Below are positions 331 through 10,399 of a stretch of 64,000 nucleotides of DNA, in pieces. Where the stretch lies: IMG/VR virus record IMGVR_UViG_3300020187_003193. One strand, written 5' to 3'. Below the pieces are notes generated by a model. It was given only the letters and a program-made list of their open reading frames with translations. It searched no databases and was not told the DNA's origin. The translations under genes were made by a program, and so were the position numbers. The stretch's first letter is position 1, and each line of letters begins with the position of its first letter. This stretch comes from a virus.

Positions 331-1179
331 ATGAAAATAAAGCATAACAAATACAAGAATACTGGTATTCTATTTGAATTATTAGTAAGGAAGATTACTT
401 CGGATACTATGTCTAATAGCAATTCCAAAGCAGCGACTTTAGTTAAGAAATACTTTACTAAAAGTGAGTTAGCTAACGAGAACAAACTCTACCAAACAAT
501 AAACAACTCTATTTCTCTATCAGAAGGTAAAGCAGAATCTGTTATCTCAACGGTATTGGAAATGTCTAGAAGATTAGATAGAGACAAATTGGCTAAGGAA
601 AAATACAACTTAATTAAGGAGATTAAAGACAATTTCGACCTTAATGATTTTTTCCAAGCCAAAATAAAAAATTACAAGCTATTAGCTTCAACCTATACTT
701 TATTTGAATCGGTAAATTCTAAAGGCTTCGGAAACCCTGAAACCATTATCAATTCTAAAGTAACCATCCTCGAACACATCACATCATCCCCAGACACTAA
801 AATGTCGCTTACACCATTGGTAGAAGAGTTAATGGGATTAGATAAAGGTACTCGTGCTTTAGCATATAAAATTATGTTAGAGAAATACAACGAGAAATTC
901 GATGGTTTAAATACAGAACAAAAACTTATCTTAAAAGAATATATTAATAGTATCGCAGATGCCCCTAAACTTAAAGAATTTTTAAATACTAAATTTAAAA
1001 GTATATCTGAGAGTTTAAAGAAAAATATATCTAAAGTAGACGATCCTACTTTGAAAATCAAAATCAAAGAGGTAATAAATCTTATTGACCCTATAGTAGA
1101 AAGTAAAAAACTAAGAGACGATCACGTTGTCGCTCTTCTACAATATGTTGAGCTTTCTCAAGAAGTAGAATTGATATGA
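331..1179 (+). CDS. Hypothetical head-region protein (putative prohead core/assembly protein), 282 aa
   Basis: Long ORF preceded by ATATTTAT, located between the portal and the protease (T4 gene 67/68 slot). Confidence 0.55.
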   Translation: MKIKHNKYKNTGILFELLVRKITSDTMSNSNSKAATLVKKYFTKSELANENKLYQTINNSISLSEGKAESVISTVLEMSRRLDRDKLAKEKYNLIKEIKDNFDLNDFFQAKIKNYKLLASTYTLFESVNSKGFGNPETIINSKVTILEHITSSPDTKMSLTPLVEELMGLDKGTRALAYKIMLEKYNEKFDGLNTEQKLILKEYINSIADAPKLKEFLNTKFKSISESLKKNISKVDDPTLKIKIKEVINLIDPIVESKKLRDDHVVALLQYVELSQEVELI

Positions 1180-1940
1180 AAATAAACTTAAAAGGTTTAA
1201 AGCAAGAGATGAGCACCACTGGAACTGGTGCTTCCTTTGCTGCTGGCACGGGCGAACAATATGCTACACCTAAAGCTTTTAAGAAACGTAAAGATGAAGT
1301 AGGAGAACCATTCTCAACACCATCTCCCTCTATCCCAAACAGAAAATCTAAAGTAATCGACTATAAAAAATTATTTCAAGAAGCTGTTGACGAGCTATCT
1401 GAAGCAGAAGTAGGCGATACTAAAACAACTAAAGGCATCAAATCAACTGTATCAGATGTTGACCCTGTAACGGGACAAATATCATGGGATATAGAATATG
1501 TACCTGCATTTGATTCTGTATATAAAGAATTTGACGATTTACGTAAAGTAATATCTCAACTCGACCAAAAGACAGACGATGCCATAGTAGACGATATAGC
1601 AGCTAAAATCAGATCCGAATTTAACAGATATCGTACACACATCAGAAAAAATTACCCTGAAGCGTACAAAAAGTTTACACTAAACGAAGCACGCTATACA
1701 GAATTTAAGAAAAAATCACAATTTCGTACACCTACACAACAATTACATATGGCTGTACGTGAAATTAGACGTAAAATCGATGAAATGACCAAAGTAGTGG
1801 CGTTTACTGAGAGAATGCGTACAGAATTAAAGGCAAGTAACGAAGGTATGTCTTATTTAAATCGTACTCGTGAATCCATTAGTAAAATAAACGAAAAACT
1901 ACAAGAATTAAATAATCGAATTAAAGGTTTAACAGAATAA
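1176..1940 (+). CDS. Putative internal head/core protein carrying a copy of the mature capsid N-terminal arm
   Basis: 254 aa with ATGA overlap. Residues TTGTGASFAAGTGEQYA match the capsid protein's TTGTGASFTAGTGEQYA. Several E-A/E-M putative protease sites. Confidence 0.6.
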   Translation: MKINLKGLKQEMSTTGTGASFAAGTGEQYATPKAFKKRKDEVGEPFSTPSPSIPNRKSKVIDYKKLFQEAVDELSEAEVGDTKTTKGIKSTVSDVDPVTGQISWDIEYVPAFDSVYKEFDDLRKVISQLDQKTDDAIVDDIAAKIRSEFNRYRTHIRKNYPEAYKKFTLNEARYTEFKKKSQFRTPTQQLHMAVREIRRKIDEMTKVVAFTERMRTELKASNEGMSYLNRTRESISKINEKLQELNNRIKGLTE

Positions 1941-2077
1941 TGGCAAAAGGCATCGCAGTTGGCAACTACAGAGGTGGTTCTAACAAAAAAAGACCGGGTG
2001 TTCACTCAAAAAGTAAGTCATCCAAAATTAAAGGTTCTAAGAATTACAAGAAACTGAATGTAGGTCAAGGCAAATAA
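1940..2077 (+). CDS. Small basic protein, 45 aa (not in ORF track)
   Basis: MAKGIAVGNYRGGSNKKRPGVHSKSKSSKIKGSKNYKKLNVGQGK*. It has 13 K/R and no D/E, overlaps the upstream stop (TAATG) and fills the gap exactly. Confidence 0.7.
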   Translation: MAKGIAVGNYRGGSNKKRPGVHSKSKSSKIKGSKNYKKLNVGQGK

Positions 2078-2088
2078 TATTTATATAC

Positions 2089-3099
2089 ATGACAACACAA
2101 GATTTATATACTAAGCTTTCTAAAGGCGAGATTACAGAACAAAAGTTCTTGTATGAAGTACGTAGAGATATTAACCTACCATGGATAACATCCAGTAACT
2201 CATTCAAAGATACTATCACTATCCTTAAAAACAAGGGTATGATATCTGAAAAACAAACTAAAAAATCTACGGGTAAACAAGAAGTAGAAATCATAGCTAA
2301 AACTATCGATATGGTTAACCCATACGAATACTCAAAAGGTATGGATTTCGAACTTGATTTAGTATATAATGCTGTAGGAAACGCCGACTTAACAGAAGAC
2401 GAAGTACTTAAAGCACAGAAAAAAGTACTTAAAAATCTTACAAATAACCCATCATACTACACTCAGAAAATGTCTACCCAAATGGAAGGCGAAAGCGAGT
2501 ATGAAATAGAGTTAAACGATAAATCTATTGCTGATTTAATCAAGAAAAACAAAGGGAAAAAAGGTAAAATTATCCGCGAACATGGAGAAGATGCCGAAAG
2601 AGTAGCTGATGTAAACGCTGATTCTACTATGTTAGAAGGAACTACTTATGTGTGGGGAGATGTTATAAACGCATTAAAAGATGAAGCGAACGCTTCAGAA
2701 TCTGAAATAGAAGCATATATAGCATCTTTAGAACGTGATATCAAAATAAATGGTATGGACGATTATAAGGGATATTCAACCGATGATTATGTTGAAGATT
2801 TTAAAAATTATATAGCTGATAAGTCTGTAAAAGAACACGGAGAACATCACGATAGAGTAGCCGATGTAAATGCTGATTCCTCACCATTAGAAGAAGAAGA
2901 AGTAGAAGAACTAGGTAGAAAAAGAGACGCTATCTACGAAAAGTATGCTAAAAAATATGGTGTTGACGTAAACGAACTTAAAGATAAAGTTGAAGCACGT
3001 AAACTTGAAATGGAAGCAATTGAAGTAGATAACGAACAAGATGCTATCAATATTCAGAAAAAATCCCCTGATGCTGACGTTCGCATAGTTAAAAAATAA
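2089..3099 (+). CDS. Acidic putative prohead core/internal protein with an internal repeat
   Basis: 336 aa and E/D-rich. EHGE..RVADVNADS occurs twice (2578-2625 and 2833-2880). Preceded by ATATTTAT. Confidence 0.55.
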   Translation: MTTQDLYTKLSKGEITEQKFLYEVRRDINLPWITSSNSFKDTITILKNKGMISEKQTKKSTGKQEVEIIAKTIDMVNPYEYSKGMDFELDLVYNAVGNADLTEDEVLKAQKKVLKNLTNNPSYYTQKMSTQMEGESEYEIELNDKSIADLIKKNKGKKGKIIREHGEDAERVADVNADSTMLEGTTYVWGDVINALKDEANASESEIEAYIASLERDIKINGMDDYKGYSTDDYVEDFKNYIADKSVKEHGEHHDRVADVNADSSPLEEEEVEELGRKRDAIYEKYAKKYGVDVNELKDKVEARKLEMEAIEVDNEQDAINIQKKSPDADVRIVKK

Positions 3100-3102
3100 C
3101 AG

Positions 3103-3720
3103 ATGGCTCAAAAATTACTATTAGAATATTCCGTATTTACCCCTAAAAGATCTCAACTTGTTGAAGGTCTAGACGGGTCAAAAAACATGGTGGTTGAAGG
3201 TATCGTACAACGTGCCGAAGAATTCAACCATAACGGAAGACGCTACCCATACGAGACATTAAAGCGTGAAGTAGACAAATATATGTCTGGCCCTATCGCT
3301 GAAAACAGAGCATTAGGGGAATTAGACCACCCAGAATCCTCTGTAATCAACTTAAAAAACGCATCCCACAACATTAAAGAATTGTGGTGGGACGGAAACG
3401 ATTTACTAGGTAAAATCGAAATATTAACTACTCCATCTGGAAACATATTAAAAGAACTATTCAAAAATAATATTACTGTAGGGATTTCATCTCGCGGTAT
3501 GGGTTCTGTTTCACAATTAGGTGAAGGTAGAGTAGAAGTAGAAGACGATTTCGAACTATTATGTTGGGATTTCGTATCTACACCATCAACACATGGTGCA
3601 TTCATGAAACCAACAGGTTTAAATGAAAATCGCACATATACTAAAAACAAATATTCAAAAATTAACTCAATTGTATCTGACATTATATGCACTCAGTCAG
3701 GTATTTGCTGTTTAAGATAA
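3103..3720 (+). CDS. Prohead core protease (T4 gp21-like)
   Basis: Motifs NGRRYP, ALGELDHP (catalytic His), GISSRGMGS (catalytic Ser) and WDFVSTPS. Lies upstream of scaffold and capsid. Confidence 0.92.
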   Translation: MAQKLLLEYSVFTPKRSQLVEGLDGSKNMVVEGIVQRAEEFNHNGRRYPYETLKREVDKYMSGPIAENRALGELDHPESSVINLKNASHNIKELWWDGNDLLGKIEILTTPSGNILKELFKNNITVGISSRGMGSVSQLGEGRVEVEDDFELLCWDFVSTPSTHGAFMKPTGLNENRTYTKNKYSKINSIVSDIICTQSGICCLR

Positions 3721-3753
3721 TTCCTCGGACGCTACCGCGGGCAGATGTCGATT

Positions 3754-3783
3754 CCCTTGCAGCAATGCAAGGGTTTCTTGTTT
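3754..3783 (+). terminator. Rho-independent terminator
   Basis: CCCTTGCA-GCAA-TGCAAGGG followed by a T-rich tract. Confidence 0.75.
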
Positions 3784-3812
3784 CTCCTATATCTTTATAT
3801 ATTTATCCACAG

Positions 3813-3883
3813 ATAAGATAGGTAATCCCTAATATTACCTCACTCAGTTCACAAAATCTTATATTACTTCCCTAATAAGTAAT
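3813..3883 (+). promoter_or_regulatory. Structured 5' leader with two hairpins sharing the loop CCCUAAU
   Basis: AGGTAAT-ccctaat-ATTACCT (3820-3840) and ATTACTT-ccctaat-AAGTAAT (3863-3883), plus an outer stem ATAAGAT/ATCTTAT (3813-3819/3856-3862). Confidence 0.6.
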
Positions 3884-3906
3884 CACACACACAAATTTTT
3901 TTAAAA

Positions 3907-5046
3907 ATGTCAAACACAAAGTTTTTCAACGATGCAATCGCTGAGGCTAAAGCTATCCGTGAAACGGCTCTTGCTAACGCTAAGCTTGCATTAGAAGAAG
4001 CTTTCACTCCACAGATTCAATCTATGCTAGAGAAAAAATTAGCAGAAGAAGCTGATGATATGGATGAAGCAAAAGACATGGACGAAGCAAAGGAAATGGA
4101 CGAAGCAAAAGACATGGACGAGGCGAAAAAAGACGTAGATGAAGCAAAATCCGATATGGACGAAGCTAAAAAAGACGTTGATGAAGCCAAAGACATGGAC
4201 GAAGCTAAGGATATGGACGAAGCTAAGGACGTGGAAGAAGGAAAAGACATGGAAGAAGCTAAAAAAGATGTAGACGAAGCTAAAGTAGAGGAATCTACTG
4301 TAGAAGAAGCTGCTGTCGAAGAAGGCTCTGACATGGAAGAAGGATCAATTGAAGAAATTGACCTAGACGAACTATTAGCTGAATTAGAAGCTGCAGAAGG
4401 CCAAGTTGCTGAAACTGCTGTTGAAGAGGTAGCTGTAGAAGAAACTGCTGTAGAAGAAGCACCTGTAGTTGAAGCGGAAGCTGAAGACGAAGTAGGTGAA
4501 ATTACAGTAGATGAGCTTAAAGACATTATCCGTGACGTCCTTGCTGATGTAATGGGTGGTGGAGCTGGAGAAGAAGAAATGGAAGATCTTGGTGACCTAG
4601 AAGGTGGCGAAGAAATGGAAATGGGCGACGAAGAAGCTGAACTTGAATTAGAAGGTAAAAAAGAAGTTGAAGAGAAAAAAGAAGTTGAGGAAGCTAAGGC
4701 TGAATTAAACGAAGCTATTTCTGTAATCAATACTCTAAAATCTGAGCTAAACGAAGTTAACTTACTTAACGCAAAACTTCTTTACGTGAACAAATTGTTC
4801 CGCAGCAAAACATTAACTGAAGCACAGAAAGTAAAAGTGATCAATGCATTTGATCGTGCTGAATCTGTGAAAGAAGTTAAAAACATCTTTGAAACAATCA
4901 AAGATTCAGTTACTATTGAAGCTAAAAAGCCAGTAAACGAATCTCGTTCATTTGCTTCTAAAGCTGCTGGAGTAGCACCAAAAACGCAAATTGTAGAAAG
5001 CAACGATTTTGTAGCTAGAATGCAAAAAATTGCTGGAATTATTTAA
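3907..5046 (+). CDS. Prohead scaffolding/core protein (T4 gp22-like)
   Basis: 379 aa, extremely acidic, predicted coiled coil, located between the protease and the capsid gene. Confidence 0.8.
   Translation: MSNTKFFNDAIAEAKAIRETALANAKLALEEAFTPQIQSMLEKKLAEEADDMDEAKDMDEAKEMDEAKDMDEAKKDVDEAKSDMDEAKKDVDEAKDMDEAKDMDEAKDVEEGKDMEEAKKDVDEAKVEESTVEEAAVEEGSDMEEGSIEEIDLDELLAELEAAEGQVAETAVEEVAVEETAVEEAPVVEAEAEDEVGEITVDELKDIIRDVLADVMGGGAGEEEMEDLGDLEGGEEMEMGDEEAELELEGKKEVEEKKEVEEAKAELNEAISVINTLKSELNEVNLLNAKLLYVNKLFRSKTLTEAQKVKVINAFDRAESVKEVKNIFETIKDSVTIEAKKPVNESRSFASKAAGVAPKTQIVESNDFVARMQKIAGII
4057..4285 (+). repeat. Tandem (K)KD(M/V)DEA peptide repeats in the scaffold
   Basis: DEAKDMDEAKEMDEAKDMDEAKKDVDEA..., roughly a dozen imperfect 6-7 aa units. 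Confidence 0.85.
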
Positions 5047-5069
5047 ATTAAAAAAACACATTATTTAAA

Positions 5070-6704
5070 ATGTCAAACGTAGTAAATCAATTATTAGAAA
5101 CTGCCAACCCTTATCAGTCTGTACAAAAAGATGCAGCTAGATTAGCAGGGAAATGGGCAAAATCAGGTTTATTAGAAGGAATTTCTAATGACACTGACAA
5201 AGCTAACATGTCTATCATGTTAGAAAACCAAGCTAAACAGCTTGTAATGGAAGCTAACACAACTGGAACAGGAGCGTCTTTCACTGCTGGAACAGGTGAG
5301 CAATACGCTGCAGTAGCTTTACCATTAGTAAGAAAGGTATTCGGACAAATCGCTGCTAAAGAATTCGTTTCTGTACAGCCAATGTCTTTACCTGCTGGAT
5401 TAGTATTTTACTTAGATTTCCAATATGGAACTACTAAGAAGCCATTCACTTCAGGAGATTCAATGTACGGAACTCCATCTGAAAACTTTGGTAACCAAGC
5501 TGCAGGTGGATTATACGGTGCTGGAAGATTTGGTTACTCTGTTAATGAACACACTGCTTCTGTTACTGGTACGCCTGCAACGGCATCTTGGGCTGATGTA
5601 AACTTTACTAGCGAACTATCAGCTTCTGCGGCTACAGGTTCATTGAAAAGCATCACAATTACTTCTGCTTCTATTTCTGCTAATTTAGATGGAGATGCTG
5701 TTCGTTCATTTGTAGTATCTTCTGGTTCTATACTAGAAACTCTTCAATTGCCTGCATTTACAAGTCAAGCTGCATCAGGAGATGTTACTTTTATATTTGA
5801 TAACTTTGAAGGAAATGATTCAAGAATTCAAACTGGTAGTCAAACTTTAAATGTTACTTATTCTAAGAAAACTGCTGATAATGCACGTGGTGATTTCGAA
5901 GATGGTTCAACATTAGCAACTACTGATCCGTCAAGAACTGCCATTTCTATCCCAGAAATCGATGTTCAAATGAGATCTGAAACTATTGCTGCTAAAACAA
6001 GAAAATTGAAAGCACAATGGACACCAGAATTCTCTCAGGATCTTAACGCGTTCCATTCAATCGACGCTGAGGCTGAATTAACTTCAATCTTATCAGAATA
6101 CATTTCTTTAGAAATCGATTTAGAGATCTTAGATATGTTGATTGAAAACGCTCCAACAACTGAAGTATGGTCTGCGAAAGTAGGAAACCAACTTAACGCT
6201 GGTGGAACTGGATTCGATTCTAACACATCTGGTGTATACTATACTCAAATGAGCTGGTTCCAAACTCTTGGAATTAAATTACAAAAAGTATCTAACATCA
6301 TTCACCAAAGAACATTAAGAGGTGGAGCTAACTTTATGGTAGTTTCTCCAACTGTAGCAACTATCTTGGAATCAATTCCTGGATTCGCTGCTGATACTGA
6401 TGGTGATGTAACTAAAGCTTCTTACGCTTTTGGTGTACAGAAAATCGGTGCTTTAAACAGCCGTTACAAAGTGTACAAGAACCCATATATGACTGAAAAC
6501 ACCATTTTAATGGGCTTCAGAGGTAACCAATTCTTAGAATCAGGTGCTGTATATGCTCCATATGTACCACTTATCATGACTCCATTAGTGTACGATCCAA
6601 ATACCTTCACTCCAAGAAAAGGTATCATGACACGTTACGCTAAGAAAATGGTAAGACCAGAATTCTACGGAAAAGTGTTCGTATCTGACTTAAACGTAAT
6701 CTAA
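5070..6704 (+). CDS. Major capsid protein (T4 gp23-like)
   Basis: 544 aa. Motifs PLVRKVF...AKEFVSVQPMSLPAGLVFYLDF, AKTRKLKAQWTPEFSQDLNAFH, YAPYVPL and FTPRKGIMTRYA. Putative maturation site E61/A62. Confidence 0.96.
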   Translation: MSNVVNQLLETANPYQSVQKDAARLAGKWAKSGLLEGISNDTDKANMSIMLENQAKQLVMEANTTGTGASFTAGTGEQYAAVALPLVRKVFGQIAAKEFVSVQPMSLPAGLVFYLDFQYGTTKKPFTSGDSMYGTPSENFGNQAAGGLYGAGRFGYSVNEHTASVTGTPATASWADVNFTSELSASAATGSLKSITITSASISANLDGDAVRSFVVSSGSILETLQLPAFTSQAASGDVTFIFDNFEGNDSRIQTGSQTLNVTYSKKTADNARGDFEDGSTLATTDPSRTAISIPEIDVQMRSETIAAKTRKLKAQWTPEFSQDLNAFHSIDAEAELTSILSEYISLEIDLEILDMLIENAPTTEVWSAKVGNQLNAGGTGFDSNTSGVYYTQMSWFQTLGIKLQKVSNIIHQRTLRGGANFMVVSPTVATILESIPGFAADTDGDVTKASYAFGVQKIGALNSRYKVYKNPYMTENTILMGFRGNQFLESGAVYAPYVPLIMTPLVYDPNTFTPRKGIMTRYAKKMVRPEFYGKVFVSDLNVI

Positions 6705-7004: not shown

Positions 7005-8111
7005 ATGGCAAATTTACCTATATCTAGATTAGTATCAGGAACGCAAGCAAACGACGGCGATAAATTCGTTTACGTACAGCAAGGAATTACTAAACAAGTT
7101 GATTATGGTGATCTTCAATCCTCTATAGTAACCGATGTAGACTATATTGACTTTAATACAAGTTCAGTAGTTACAGGTAAACCTGGTAGATTACGTTGGA
7201 ACGATGTTGACGGTACTTTAGATTTAAGTCTTAAAAATGGGAATGTAACATTACAAATTGGGCAAGAAATCAATATTAATGCATATAATAACGAAACCGC
7301 ATCATTATTAGAATCAGAATATAGGGCTGTCTATGTAAGCGGTTCAGTAAGCAACTTCCCAGCAGTTAATCTAGCATCTAATTTAGATAGACGTTCTTCA
7401 GAAAATACTATAGGAATTGTAACAGAAGATATAGCAGCAGGAGAACTTGGTTATATAACAACTCAAGGAATGGTTAGAGACATTGATATGAGTGCCTACA
7501 ATCCTGGCGATACTTTATACTTAGGTGCCAATGATGGGATATTATTAAATGAACCCCCTCTTCCACCTGCACTTACAGTTATTATGGGGTACTGTATAAA
7601 TAACGATGCTACAACGGGTTCAATGTATGTTAATGTTAGAAGTGGATTTGAATATCCACAATATGCCATTGCATATAACTTATCTGACCATACTGCTTCA
7701 GCTGATACAGCAACAATAATTGACTTTGATACACCTCAAGTATTAAGCGGAATATCACTCATAAGTGGTTCCCAATTTACAGTATCAACCCCAGGCCTAT
7801 ATGAATTTACCGTACTCTCTCAGATAAACCGAGCTGCAAGTTCGGGTACTGCTACATTATATTTTTGGGCAAAGAAAAATGGAGTAGATATTCCAAATTC
7901 AAATAATAACCAAAGTATAACGGGAAATACCGGTACTGCTGCAACCTTAATGAGTAAAAATCTTGTTATAGTATTGGAGGAAGGTGATTATGTTGAATTT
8001 TATTGGGCAACAACTGATGCTGATATGATACTAAAATATACCGCAGCAAGCTCCACCCCTACTAGACCAGCAACAGCAGCAGTAAAAGTTACAGCAACAA
8101 GGTTAAGTTAA
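7005..8111 (+). CDS. Putative head decoration/fibre protein with a C-terminal C1q/BclA-like beta domain
   Basis: 368 aa. C-terminal FTVSTPGLYEFTV...LEEGDYVEFYW pattern. Directly follows the capsid gene. Confidence 0.5.
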   Translation: MANLPISRLVSGTQANDGDKFVYVQQGITKQVDYGDLQSSIVTDVDYIDFNTSSVVTGKPGRLRWNDVDGTLDLSLKNGNVTLQIGQEININAYNNETASLLESEYRAVYVSGSVSNFPAVNLASNLDRRSSENTIGIVTEDIAAGELGYITTQGMVRDIDMSAYNPGDTLYLGANDGILLNEPPLPPALTVIMGYCINNDATTGSMYVNVRSGFEYPQYAIAYNLSDHTASADTATIIDFDTPQVLSGISLISGSQFTVSTPGLYEFTVLSQINRAASSGTATLYFWAKKNGVDIPNSNNNQSITGNTGTAATLMSKNLVIVLEEGDYVEFYWATTDADMILKYTAASSTPTRPATAAVKVTATRLS

Positions 8112-8162
8112 TATTTATATAGGAACGTTCTTATATTTTATTAACTAACTAACAAACCGTTT

Positions 8163-8897
8163 ATGGCAAGTAAACCTCACACGGACGAAGTATATCGTCC
8201 TAAAAGAGTAGTAAAGAATCCAATTAACTTCAAAATTCAATTAAACGAAGAACAAAAAGAAGCGAAAGCCAAAATATTAGAAAACACAATAACCCTCTTA
8301 GCAGGACAAGCAGGTTCCGGAAAAACACTTTTAGCATGTAATATAGCCTTAGATGGTTTAATGCGAAGACAATATACTAAAGTTATAATCACACGCCCTA
8401 CTGTATCGAAAGAAGATATAGGTTTCTTACCAGGCGATATGAGAGAAAAAATGGACCCGTGGGTTCAACCTATTTACCAAAATATGTTTCTCTTATATGA
8501 CAAAGAAAAAATCAAAAAACTTATACAAGACGAACAAATAGAAATTGTACCTGTATCCTTCATGAGAGGACGTACGTTCGTTGATTCACTCATCATAGTA
8601 GACGAAGCTCAAAACGTTACACACGATCAAATGGAAATGATCGCCACCCGTATTGGAAAACATTCTAAAATGGTTGTATGCGGTGATACTCACCAAGTGG
8701 ATTTAAAAAATAAAGGCGATTCTGGATTTAAATTCTTGTACAATGCTGCAAGAAAAATCAAAAACATGGAAGCCATTACCTTACTAACAAACAACAGAGA
8801 TGCCATTGTTGAGGATTTAATCAATTACTATAACGATGCGTACGATAAAAAACAAATCGTAGGTACCGCAGGTAGTAGTGGAGGCCAGAGAAAGTAA
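8163..8897 (+). CDS. phoH: PhoH-family ATPase
   Basis: Motifs GQAGSGKT, ITRPTV, IGFLPGDMREKMDPW, FMRGRTF, IVDEAQN and GDTHQVDL. Confidence 0.95.
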   Translation: MASKPHTDEVYRPKRVVKNPINFKIQLNEEQKEAKAKILENTITLLAGQAGSGKTLLACNIALDGLMRRQYTKVIITRPTVSKEDIGFLPGDMREKMDPWVQPIYQNMFLLYDKEKIKKLIQDEQIEIVPVSFMRGRTFVDSLIIVDEAQNVTHDQMEMIATRIGKHSKMVVCGDTHQVDLKNKGDSGFKFLYNAARKIKNMEAITLLTNNRDAIVEDLINYYNDAYDKKQIVGTAGSSGGQRK

Positions 8898-8924
8898 ATA
8901 TTTATAATAAATACTCACTAAAAC

Positions 8925-9329
8925 ATGGCTGCAGGAAAATATTCTTTCTTAATAGAGCAAGGAGCTACTACTAATTTTGAAATAGTTTACAAAGATTCAA
9001 CGGGAACACCTATTGATTTGACTAACTATCAAGCTAGAATGCAAGTAAGAACTCTTAAAACAGGTTCTTCTGATATATACTTAACTTTATCTTCAAGTTT
9101 ACAAGAAGACGGAACAGGTTTAAGCTTAAGTGGATCTAGTGGTATAAACCCCCCCGAATCTGGATCGATTGGAATATTCATCTCAGCGGCAACATCTTCA
9201 GAATTAAACTTTTCTCAAGGTTACTATGACTTAGAAATAGCCACAGGTAGTGGCCCAACAGCTGTAGTAACTAGATTGTTAGAAGGAGTTGCTCAATTAT
9301 CTCAACAAGTAACTACAGGATCCTTTTAA
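8925..9329 (+). CDS. Small virion structural protein (BppU-like Ig fold)
   Basis: IEQGAT...PIDLTNYQARMQVR...YYDLEI...RLLEG pattern, rich in SGS/TGS. Confidence 0.5.
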   Translation: MAAGKYSFLIEQGATTNFEIVYKDSTGTPIDLTNYQARMQVRTLKTGSSDIYLTLSSSLQEDGTGLSLSGSSGINPPESGSIGIFISAATSSELNFSQGYYDLEIATGSGPTAVVTRLLEGVAQLSQQVTTGSF

Positions 9330-10399
9330 TGGCTAATAAGATAACAGTAAATACAGATACAAGCCAAGTCACGGTACAAAACCCCTCTGCAAACAATGTA
9401 GTACAGGTTAATACTCCTGGACCTCAAGGATCCCCTGGTGAACAGGGCCCACAAGGACCCGCAGGTGAAATACCTACATCAGGCTCATATAGTGGTTCAT
9501 TTAGTGGATCATTTCAAGGAGACGGAACATTATTAACAGGTGTAGCTTCTCCCACAGGATCCTATACAGGTTCCTTTACAGGCTCCGTTTTAGGAGACGT
9601 AATAGGTACAGCTTCACAAGCCGTAACCGCTTCATATGCCCTATTTGCTGTATCGGCTTCACATGAGGTTACACTAGAATTATCATCTTCATTTGCTGAA
9701 ACTGCATCTGTAGCATTACGTGGTGAAGGAGATTTTACAGGTAGCTTTTTAGCTACAGGAGATATTTTACCTGATGCCCATTTTGCCTATGACATAGGTT
9801 CATCTGAAAGGGCATTTAGAGAATTATACTTAAGTGGATCAACTATATACTTAGGTGGAAATAAACTCTCAATTAACGAAGAAGGTACCCTTAAAGTTAC
9901 AAATAACGAATCAGGTGAGCAAACTCCCTCAGATCTTTCGGGTTCATTTACAGGTTCATACTTAGGTTCAGTATCAACAACAGACTTTACCTTTGATGGT
10001 GATACTTTAAACGTATTGGGAGATGTATTTGTACAAGGTACATTAGATGCTGCAACCAAAAACTTTAAAATACAGCACCCAACAATGCCTGGGTACTATT
10101 TAGTACACTCTTCACTTGAAGGACCAGAACGCGGGATGTATGTTAGAGGCAAATTAAAAACTAGCGATACAATTCACTTACCAGATTACTGGAACGAATT
10201 AACAGACGATGTAGATATTACAGTACAACTTACTCCAATAGGAAACTCTTGTACACATTTTGTAAAATCTGTAAATAAACAAGAAATTATAGTTGGATGC
10301 GATTGCGGGGCACCACATTGTTTCTATATTGTACACGCACAACGATACAATGAAGGCAAGTTTGACGTATTACAACCCAAATGGACGAAAAAATTATAA
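9329..10399 (+). CDS. Short fibre/spike protein with a short collagen stretch and a fibre-type C-terminal domain
   Basis: GPQGSPGEQGPQGPAG and many SGSF/TGSF units. C-terminal KNFKIQHP...LVHSSLEGPE...LPDYW...VQLTPIG. Confidence 0.6.
   Translation: MANKITVNTDTSQVTVQNPSANNVVQVNTPGPQGSPGEQGPQGPAGEIPTSGSYSGSFSGSFQGDGTLLTGVASPTGSYTGSFTGSVLGDVIGTASQAVTASYALFAVSASHEVTLELSSSFAETASVALRGEGDFTGSFLATGDILPDAHFAYDIGSSERAFRELYLSGSTIYLGGNKLSINEEGTLKVTNNESGEQTPSDLSGSFTGSYLGSVSTTDFTFDGDTLNVLGDVFVQGTLDAATKNFKIQHPTMPGYYLVHSSLEGPERGMYVRGKLKTSDTIHLPDYWNELTDDVDITVQLTPIGNSCTHFVKSVNKQEIIVGCDCGAPHCFYIVHAQRYNEGKFDVLQPKWTKKL

Follow-up and report, generated by a model that had tools for sequence, protein, structure and literature searches.

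A probable core protein of T4-like phages carries a capsid maturation-junction segment that co-varies with the capsid

Introduction

Why should a second head gene of a marine T4-like phage carry a copy of the segment with which the mature capsid protein begins? This question is raised by a 64,000-nucleotide stretch of the virus record IMGVR_UViG_3300020187_003193 from IMG/VR (hereafter the window, meaning the whole stretch at its full length), in which the open reading frame (ORF) at 1176-1940, encoding a 254-residue protein (hereafter the small protein), repeats a 17-residue segment of the major capsid protein encoded further downstream. In phage T4, the corresponding part of the capsid protein gp23 is the N-fist, a stretch of 25 residues (66-90) that directly follows the cut at E65/A66 (PMC9958956). 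Before expansion, residues 66-105 of T4 gp23 are disordered and lie inside the head, presumably in contact with the scaffolding core; the head-length mutants A66D, A94V, and G97S fall within them (PMC9546572). After head expansion, this N-terminal region moves to the outer surface, where it binds four adjacent subunits (PMC9546572, PMC9958956). Both the communication between core and shell in T4-like heads and the move of the N-terminal region from core contact to external N-fist are only partly understood. Here we report that the capsid maturation junction and N-fist have a counterpart in a probable core protein, that this counterpart co-varies with the capsid, and that purifying selection keeps the two copies alike at the protein level.

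A motif shared by two head genes

The small protein reads M1..E11-M-S-TTGTGASFAAGTGEQYA, and the capsid protein reads ..LVME61-A-N-TTGTGASFTAGTGEQYA, such that the motif TTGTGASF[A/T]AGTGEQYA begins two residues after a Glu in both proteins, with 16 of its 17 residues identical. Composition-adjusted BLASTP comparison of the two proteins gave 19/25 identities at an E value of 5e-8, in an alignment that begins a few residues upstream of the Glu. Residues 63-80 of the window capsid protein align with residues 75-92 of T4 gp23 (phmmer). The 64-kb window has the motif twice, as does a complete relative of 166 kb, and in neither is it found outside these two genes.

The 17 motif codons comprise five identical, eleven synonymous, and one non-synonymous pair (GCT/ACT), which reproduces the codon count of the initial annotation; the peptides and positions that it had assigned to the two genes were likewise borne out. 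At the 16 identical residues, five codons are shared, against 6.8 expected if codons are drawn at random from head-gene usage. Thus, the synonymous sites are fully randomised in the window.

Co-variation of the two copies across related phages

Homologs of the small protein vary in length from 73 to 529 residues, and in domain order too. They have only one universal module, consisting of an amphipathic helix ending in Glu, an arm-like Gly/Thr/Ser/Ala-rich segment (the mimic), the motif Y-x-T-P-x-A-F, a basic stretch, and I-D-Y-K. In scans of viral contigs, small-protein homologs turned up at 23 loci, and 80 loci were recovered around related capsid genes. With a profile of the universal module, 67 loci proved to have a homolog that precedes the capsid gene. 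Capsid proteins are matched by this profile as well, at the maturation junction (E values of 1e-7 to 1e-3), including about 8 residues before the Glu. Two phages with related capsids gave no module homolog: Rhodothermus phage RM378 within about 2.7 kb on the upstream and 10 kb on the downstream side of the capsid gene (bounded by the record end), and the 484-kb phage LR756508 within 10 kb on either side.

Sequence comparison revealed that the likeness between the small-protein segment and the capsid arm of the same genome is lineage-specific, shared indels included. In relative L057, TGGGVSNGATFTPGTGEQ is present in both genes, within ESATGGGVSNGATFTPGTGEQY in the small protein and SSNTGGGVSNGATFTPGTGEQW in the capsid protein. 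The corresponding segments of L019, ISSTNSGGATFTPGTGAQY and ASSTNSGGASFTAGDGAQW, have STNSGGA in common. Similarly, TGGGAGS occurs in both proteins of L049, L065, L066, and L084, and GTAGAAF in both proteins of L096; both segments of L104 begin with QSSTGTG. For a permutation test, we took one genome per cluster at <80% capsid identity, yielding 31 clusters. Own-genome pairs scored 46.2, compared to 33.0 for pairs with other genomes (p≤5e-5), and the own capsid protein was the best match in 10/31 clusters, or in 10/17 among the long-form proteins. Stricter clustering at <70% identity left 11 clusters and gave p=1e-4.

Across 44 distinct pairs, residues are identical at 440 positions; at 206 of these the codons are identical too, where 215 would be expected, and no run of identical nucleotides exceeds 16. 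Recent gene conversion was sought in all of these lineages, with no sign of it in any. These results strongly support the claim of the initial annotation that the match is held at the protein level and does not stem from a recent DNA duplication. It had also proposed to check whether the two motifs co-vary across relatives, and took conservation in only one gene without co-variation as evidence against its model; since the relatives carry the motif in both genes and the copies co-vary, this objection does not arise.

Candidate cleavage sites and modules of the small protein

In T4, core proteins are cut by the prohead protease gp21 at L/I-x-E (PMC9026906). A [LIVM]-x-E site stands immediately N-terminal to the mimic in 31/44 lineages, in agreement with this rule, and cleavage directly before the motif in the small protein is plausible. 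The clade of the window departs from this pattern, having L-K-[QKR]-E before the mimic. Further candidate sites in the small protein of the window, V-D-E, L-N-E|A, and a C-terminal L-T-E, lie at module borders.

Residues 1-62 of the small protein, including the mimic region, are predicted to be disordered by AlphaFold2, at low confidence (predicted local distance difference test, pLDDT, of 54); outside the 25-30 capsid-like residues, the model, also of low confidence, is helical or disordered. Nevertheless, among 120 homologs of the window clade, no other ten residues in a row anywhere in the protein are as conserved as EMSTTGTGAS. The universal module alone, of 73-84 residues, is encoded by Flavobacterium phage immuto (73-residue form, YP_010114611) and by several contigs. 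In about 40% of the relatives, the junction is internal, preceded by a domain of 100-135 residues instead of a leader of 10 residues.

The small protein has no Pfam or PHROG family match above cut-off, and tblastn against 50,697 phage records gave no match, the relatives in cultured phages being reached only via synteny. Matches to influenza HA2 (Pfam E=0.004, below cut-off; PDB E of about 0.004) fall on a helical stretch and were rejected as spurious. In L017-L021 the middle module stands ahead of the mimic module, the reverse of the window order, and the homolog of L016 (2751-4088) has an insertion of about 140 residues between I-N-E|A and L-N-E|A. The modules of the family thus look shuffled, with candidate protease sites at the borders of some of them.

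A putative contact in the prohead

That the two copies match only at the protein level and change together across dozens of related phages is indicative of a common, previously undescribed contact during head assembly. The small protein is likely a prohead-core or internal head protein; we infer that it most likely belongs to the T4-like prohead core. These considerations enable us to propose a putative model. The universal module begins with a copy of the capsid maturation junction, comprising a short helix, a putative Glu cut site, and about 20 residues equivalent to the T4 gp23 N-fist. Inside the unexpanded prohead, the mimic would engage whichever partner the capsid junction and N-fist engage; candidates are the core or scaffold, the protease, the inner shell face, and the capsid segment itself, by like-with-like pairing. 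This contact would couple the small protein to core-shell assembly and make it available for the cut that the capsid junction receives. Such a cut, by the S77 protease, would release a basic peptide of about 60 residues with the mimic as its new N-terminus. Since two genes would hardly come to share indels unless DNA was copied, the shared indels most simply reflect rare, ancient copying between the two genes, after which strong purifying selection would have retained the result in both copies. Whichever way the likeness arose, it implies that the two segments are functionally interchangeable. We regard the account as a whole, a core protein cut by the S77 protease whose mimic uses the same partner as the capsid junction, as evenly poised between right and wrong.

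Several observations weigh against it. The candidate site of the window itself, L-K-Q-E, has its Leu at P4 and differs from [LIV]-x-E at P3. If the protease or the scaffold is the partner, the conservation of both would fit poorly with a fast-changing docking segment. Moreover, a short class of homologs (immuto, L040, L043, L053, L054, L061, L071, L085, L088, L098, L101, and L107) retains only E|MSTSGGAGAY-x-TP-x-AF, with about 9 residues of the mimic, despite long capsid arms, which indicates that full mimicry is not required for the function of the family. Finally, fewer independent events than genomes stand behind the pattern. When the arm is left out of a capsid tree, short and long forms come out intermingled, and on the same tree the arm types of L049/L084 and L065/L066 are split by well-supported nodes. 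The recurrence of arm types in separate branches indicates repeated copying or mosaic exchange of a linked block; it suggests that the capsid gene has exchanged its 5' end in mosaic fashion, perhaps along with upstream core genes. If capsid arm type and small gene move as one block, the independent co-variation events may be correspondingly fewer. The arm types of L049, L084, L065, and L066 are near-identical (ESNTGGGAGSGTFT.GTGAQW).

A more specific possibility, which we put forward only tentatively, is that the mimic acts as a working surrogate of the N-fist. It would bind the N-fist pocket of the capsid protein or pair like-with-like with the capsid segment, and in this way couple the core to the shell or time expansion; selection would force its recopying or retuning whenever the capsid fist changes. 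If true, this would represent a previously unrecognised assembly principle for T4-like heads.

The initial annotation had instead proposed that, after removal of the leader, the N-terminal mimic docks into the lattice site that normally holds the capsid N-fist, and could thereby anchor an internal or ejected protein or regulate expansion. The mimic indeed spans the N-fist equivalent and ends where the capsid N-arm starts. As the T4 N-fist binds four adjacent subunits (PMC9958956), the binding surface would be the capsid protein, which varies between lineages, and this would explain why the mimic follows the version of its own capsid. Furthermore, a complete relative has only one Gp23-family gene and no vertex paralog of the gp24 type. 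However, the T4 N-fist lies on the outer surface after expansion, whereas a protein processed in the core would be inside; each subunit brings its own N-fist, leaving few free sites; and the short-class relatives are devoid of most of the fist. We consider such docking unlikely, whether as an anchor or as a restraint on expansion, and view with the same reserve the sites that it might use, namely those vacant around the portal or at the vertices. A contact within the prohead is preferred here, with the presence of the small protein in the prohead, the cut before the mimic, and the partner common with the capsid junction all presumed.

It is also improbable, in our judgement, that the two segments are mere flexible, protease-accessible linkers with no specific common partner, homogenised by occasional gene conversion or by joint transfer of a linked block. 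DNA copying is the simplest source of the shared indels, the segment is rich in Gly, Thr, Ser, and Ala and predicted to be disordered, and arm types common to lineages that are apart on the capsid tree suggest mosaic exchange. Nonetheless, identical codons are in excess in none of the 44 pairs, nor does any pair have a long stretch of identical nucleotides, which makes any conversions rare and old at the least. Residues were kept in both copies while the synonymous sites became random, and the first ten residues are almost invariant within the clade, unlike an unconstrained linker. As for a chance low-complexity resemblance or a recent DNA duplication, the bias of the motif to Gly, Thr, Ala, and Ser gives it next to no weight against a composition-corrected BLASTP E value of 5e-8, random synonymous sites, and a trait that is family-wide and co-varying.

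A short, nearly invariant peptide, predicted to be disordered, that tracks the capsid junction across lineages from within a probable core protein amounts to a natural experiment. The tracking singles out the junction and N-fist as an element of specific interaction and provides a defined peptide for experiments. In marine metagenomes the family is abundant, with 609 homologs, all unnamed and none with a Pfam domain, and the cultured phage immuto has its minimal form of 73 residues. Being of the short class, the immuto copy suits questions of prohead presence and cleavage, whereas questions on the full mimic would call for a long-class phage.

Comparison with T4 head proteins

The mimic gene is located between the portal and prohead protease genes in the window and in immuto, as are the small T4 genes 67 and 68 between portal gene 20 and protease gene 21. 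T4 gp67 and gp68 are built into the scaffolding core, are cut by gp21 at L/I-x-E, and can influence head shape. They are the counterparts of the small protein in position and presumably in function, yet show no detectable homology to it (module profile against T4 head proteins, E≥0.2). In T4 (L027; gp67 gene at 5782-6024, gp23 gene at 7946-9511), residues 33-46 of gp67 (KEEKIAIARNFLIE) align with residues 51-65 of gp23 (KDEKIAQAFGSFLTE), ending at the cleaved Glu 65. With a BLASTP E value of 0.6, this likeness is only suggestive; it may be a faint precedent of a core protein copying the capsid junction, and we found no statement on it in the literature. The gp67 likeness lies upstream of the cut, whereas the window copy lies mainly downstream, in the N-fist, and is near-identical and co-varying.

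The T4 internal proteins IPI-III and Alt have a leader of about 10 residues ending in Glu, which is removed by the prohead protease (PMC3012670, PMC9958956). The small protein of the window similarly has an 11-residue leader ending in Glu. In the T4 proteins, however, the leader itself is the targeting sequence and the matured N-terminus does not resemble the capsid protein; the internal junction in about two-fifths of the relatives of the window protein is a further difference. T4 gp24 also has a 10-residue leader that is cut after Glu, and its N-terminus binds neighbouring capsomers after expansion (PMC9546572). Like the small protein, it is a further head protein with similarity to the major capsid protein, but it is a full-length paralog with the HK97 fold, whereas the window protein shares only about 25-30 residues with the capsid protein. 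BLASTP of the small protein against the gp24 N-terminus gave no alignment, and the small protein has no Gp23 Pfam match; a likeness to the gp24 N-terminus MAKINELLRE|STTT is anecdotal only. Homology to gp67, gp68, and gp24 was thus tested and not found. The copy in the probable core protein represents a variant of the T4-type core-protein theme. A literature search for proteomic or structural studies of the heads of this phage group found none.

The head module of the window

The first 9 kb of the window is the head module of a T4-like phage, in the order portal C-terminus, 282-residue ORF, 254-residue mimic ORF, 45-residue ORF, 336-residue ORF, S77 protease, scaffold-like protein, and capsid protein (Table 1). 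In capsid protein, Flavobacterium phage immuto is the closest cultured phage, at 59.5% identity, followed by Microcystis phage Mel-JY01 at 50.7%; the gene order of the window is retained in the former and closely similar in the latter. The capsid protein also matches the T4 gp23 chains 5vf3, 8gmo, and 6uzc in the PDB at an E value of about 6e-29.

Table 1. Features of the head module and of the two motif-bearing proteins
Feature	Position	Strand	Basis
Conserved 282-residue head-module protein, role unassigned	331-1179	+	Matches in 81 related loci; follows the portal gene in immuto
Multi-module protein with capsid-arm mimic, 254 residues	1176-1940	+	Position between portal and protease
Leader of 11 residues, MKINLKGLKQE, ending in Glu; putative propeptide or targeting helix	1176-1208	+	Relatives have amphipathic leaders ending [LIV]-x-E
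Mimic of the capsid N-fist, TTGTGASFAAGTGEQYA	1215-1265	+	BLASTP match, codon comparison
Remainder of the universal module: TPKAF, basic stretch, PSIPNRKSKVIDYK, candidate V-D-E site at the end	1266-1394	+	Module alignment, hidden Markov model matches in 67 loci, site list
Middle module, small beta sheet and helices, ending L-N-E|A	1395-1688	+	AlphaFold2 model and alignment
C-terminal helical hairpin module, ending L-T-E	1689-1937	+	AlphaFold2 model and alignment; conserved as far as Mel-JY01
Highly basic ORF of 45 residues	1940-2077	+	Matches in 20 loci
Candidate core protein of 336 residues, between mimic gene and protease	2089-3099	+	Matches in 43 loci; homologous to the 360-residue ORF of immuto
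Prohead protease, Peptidase S77 (T4 gp21 type)	3103-3720	+	Pfam PF03420, 1.1e-31, 110 bits against a cut-off of 27; PHROG 207, 2.7e-54
Acidic, repeat-rich scaffold protein in the gp22 position	3907-5046	+	Position and composition; homologous ORFs precede the capsid gene in immuto and Mel-JY01
Major capsid protein, Gp23 family	5070-6704	+	Pfam PF07068, E=5.5e-77, 260 bits against a cut-off of 24.4
Putative capsid propeptide, residues 1-61, ending L-V-M-E	5070-5252	+	Alignment to T4 gp23
Capsid copy of the motif, T4 N-fist equivalent	5259-5309	+	phmmer alignment to T4 gp23

The protein encoded upstream of the mimic gene matched no Pfam or PHROG family, despite its strong conservation; its stop codon overlaps the start of the mimic gene (ATGA). 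At the other end, the stop codon of the mimic gene shares one base with the start of the basic ORF, which is probably a real small gene because it is conserved in 20 related loci, and whose product is possibly an internal DNA-binding peptide. In the scaffold-like protein, acidic repeats of six residues (DMDEAK, DVDEAK, and variants) form a long array, after which come stretches rich in Glu, Val, and Ala. On the 3' side of the capsid gene, an ORF of 368 residues (7005-8111, + strand) has a sub-threshold match to Phage_cement_2 (23.5 bits against a cut-off of 24) and may encode a capsid decoration protein.

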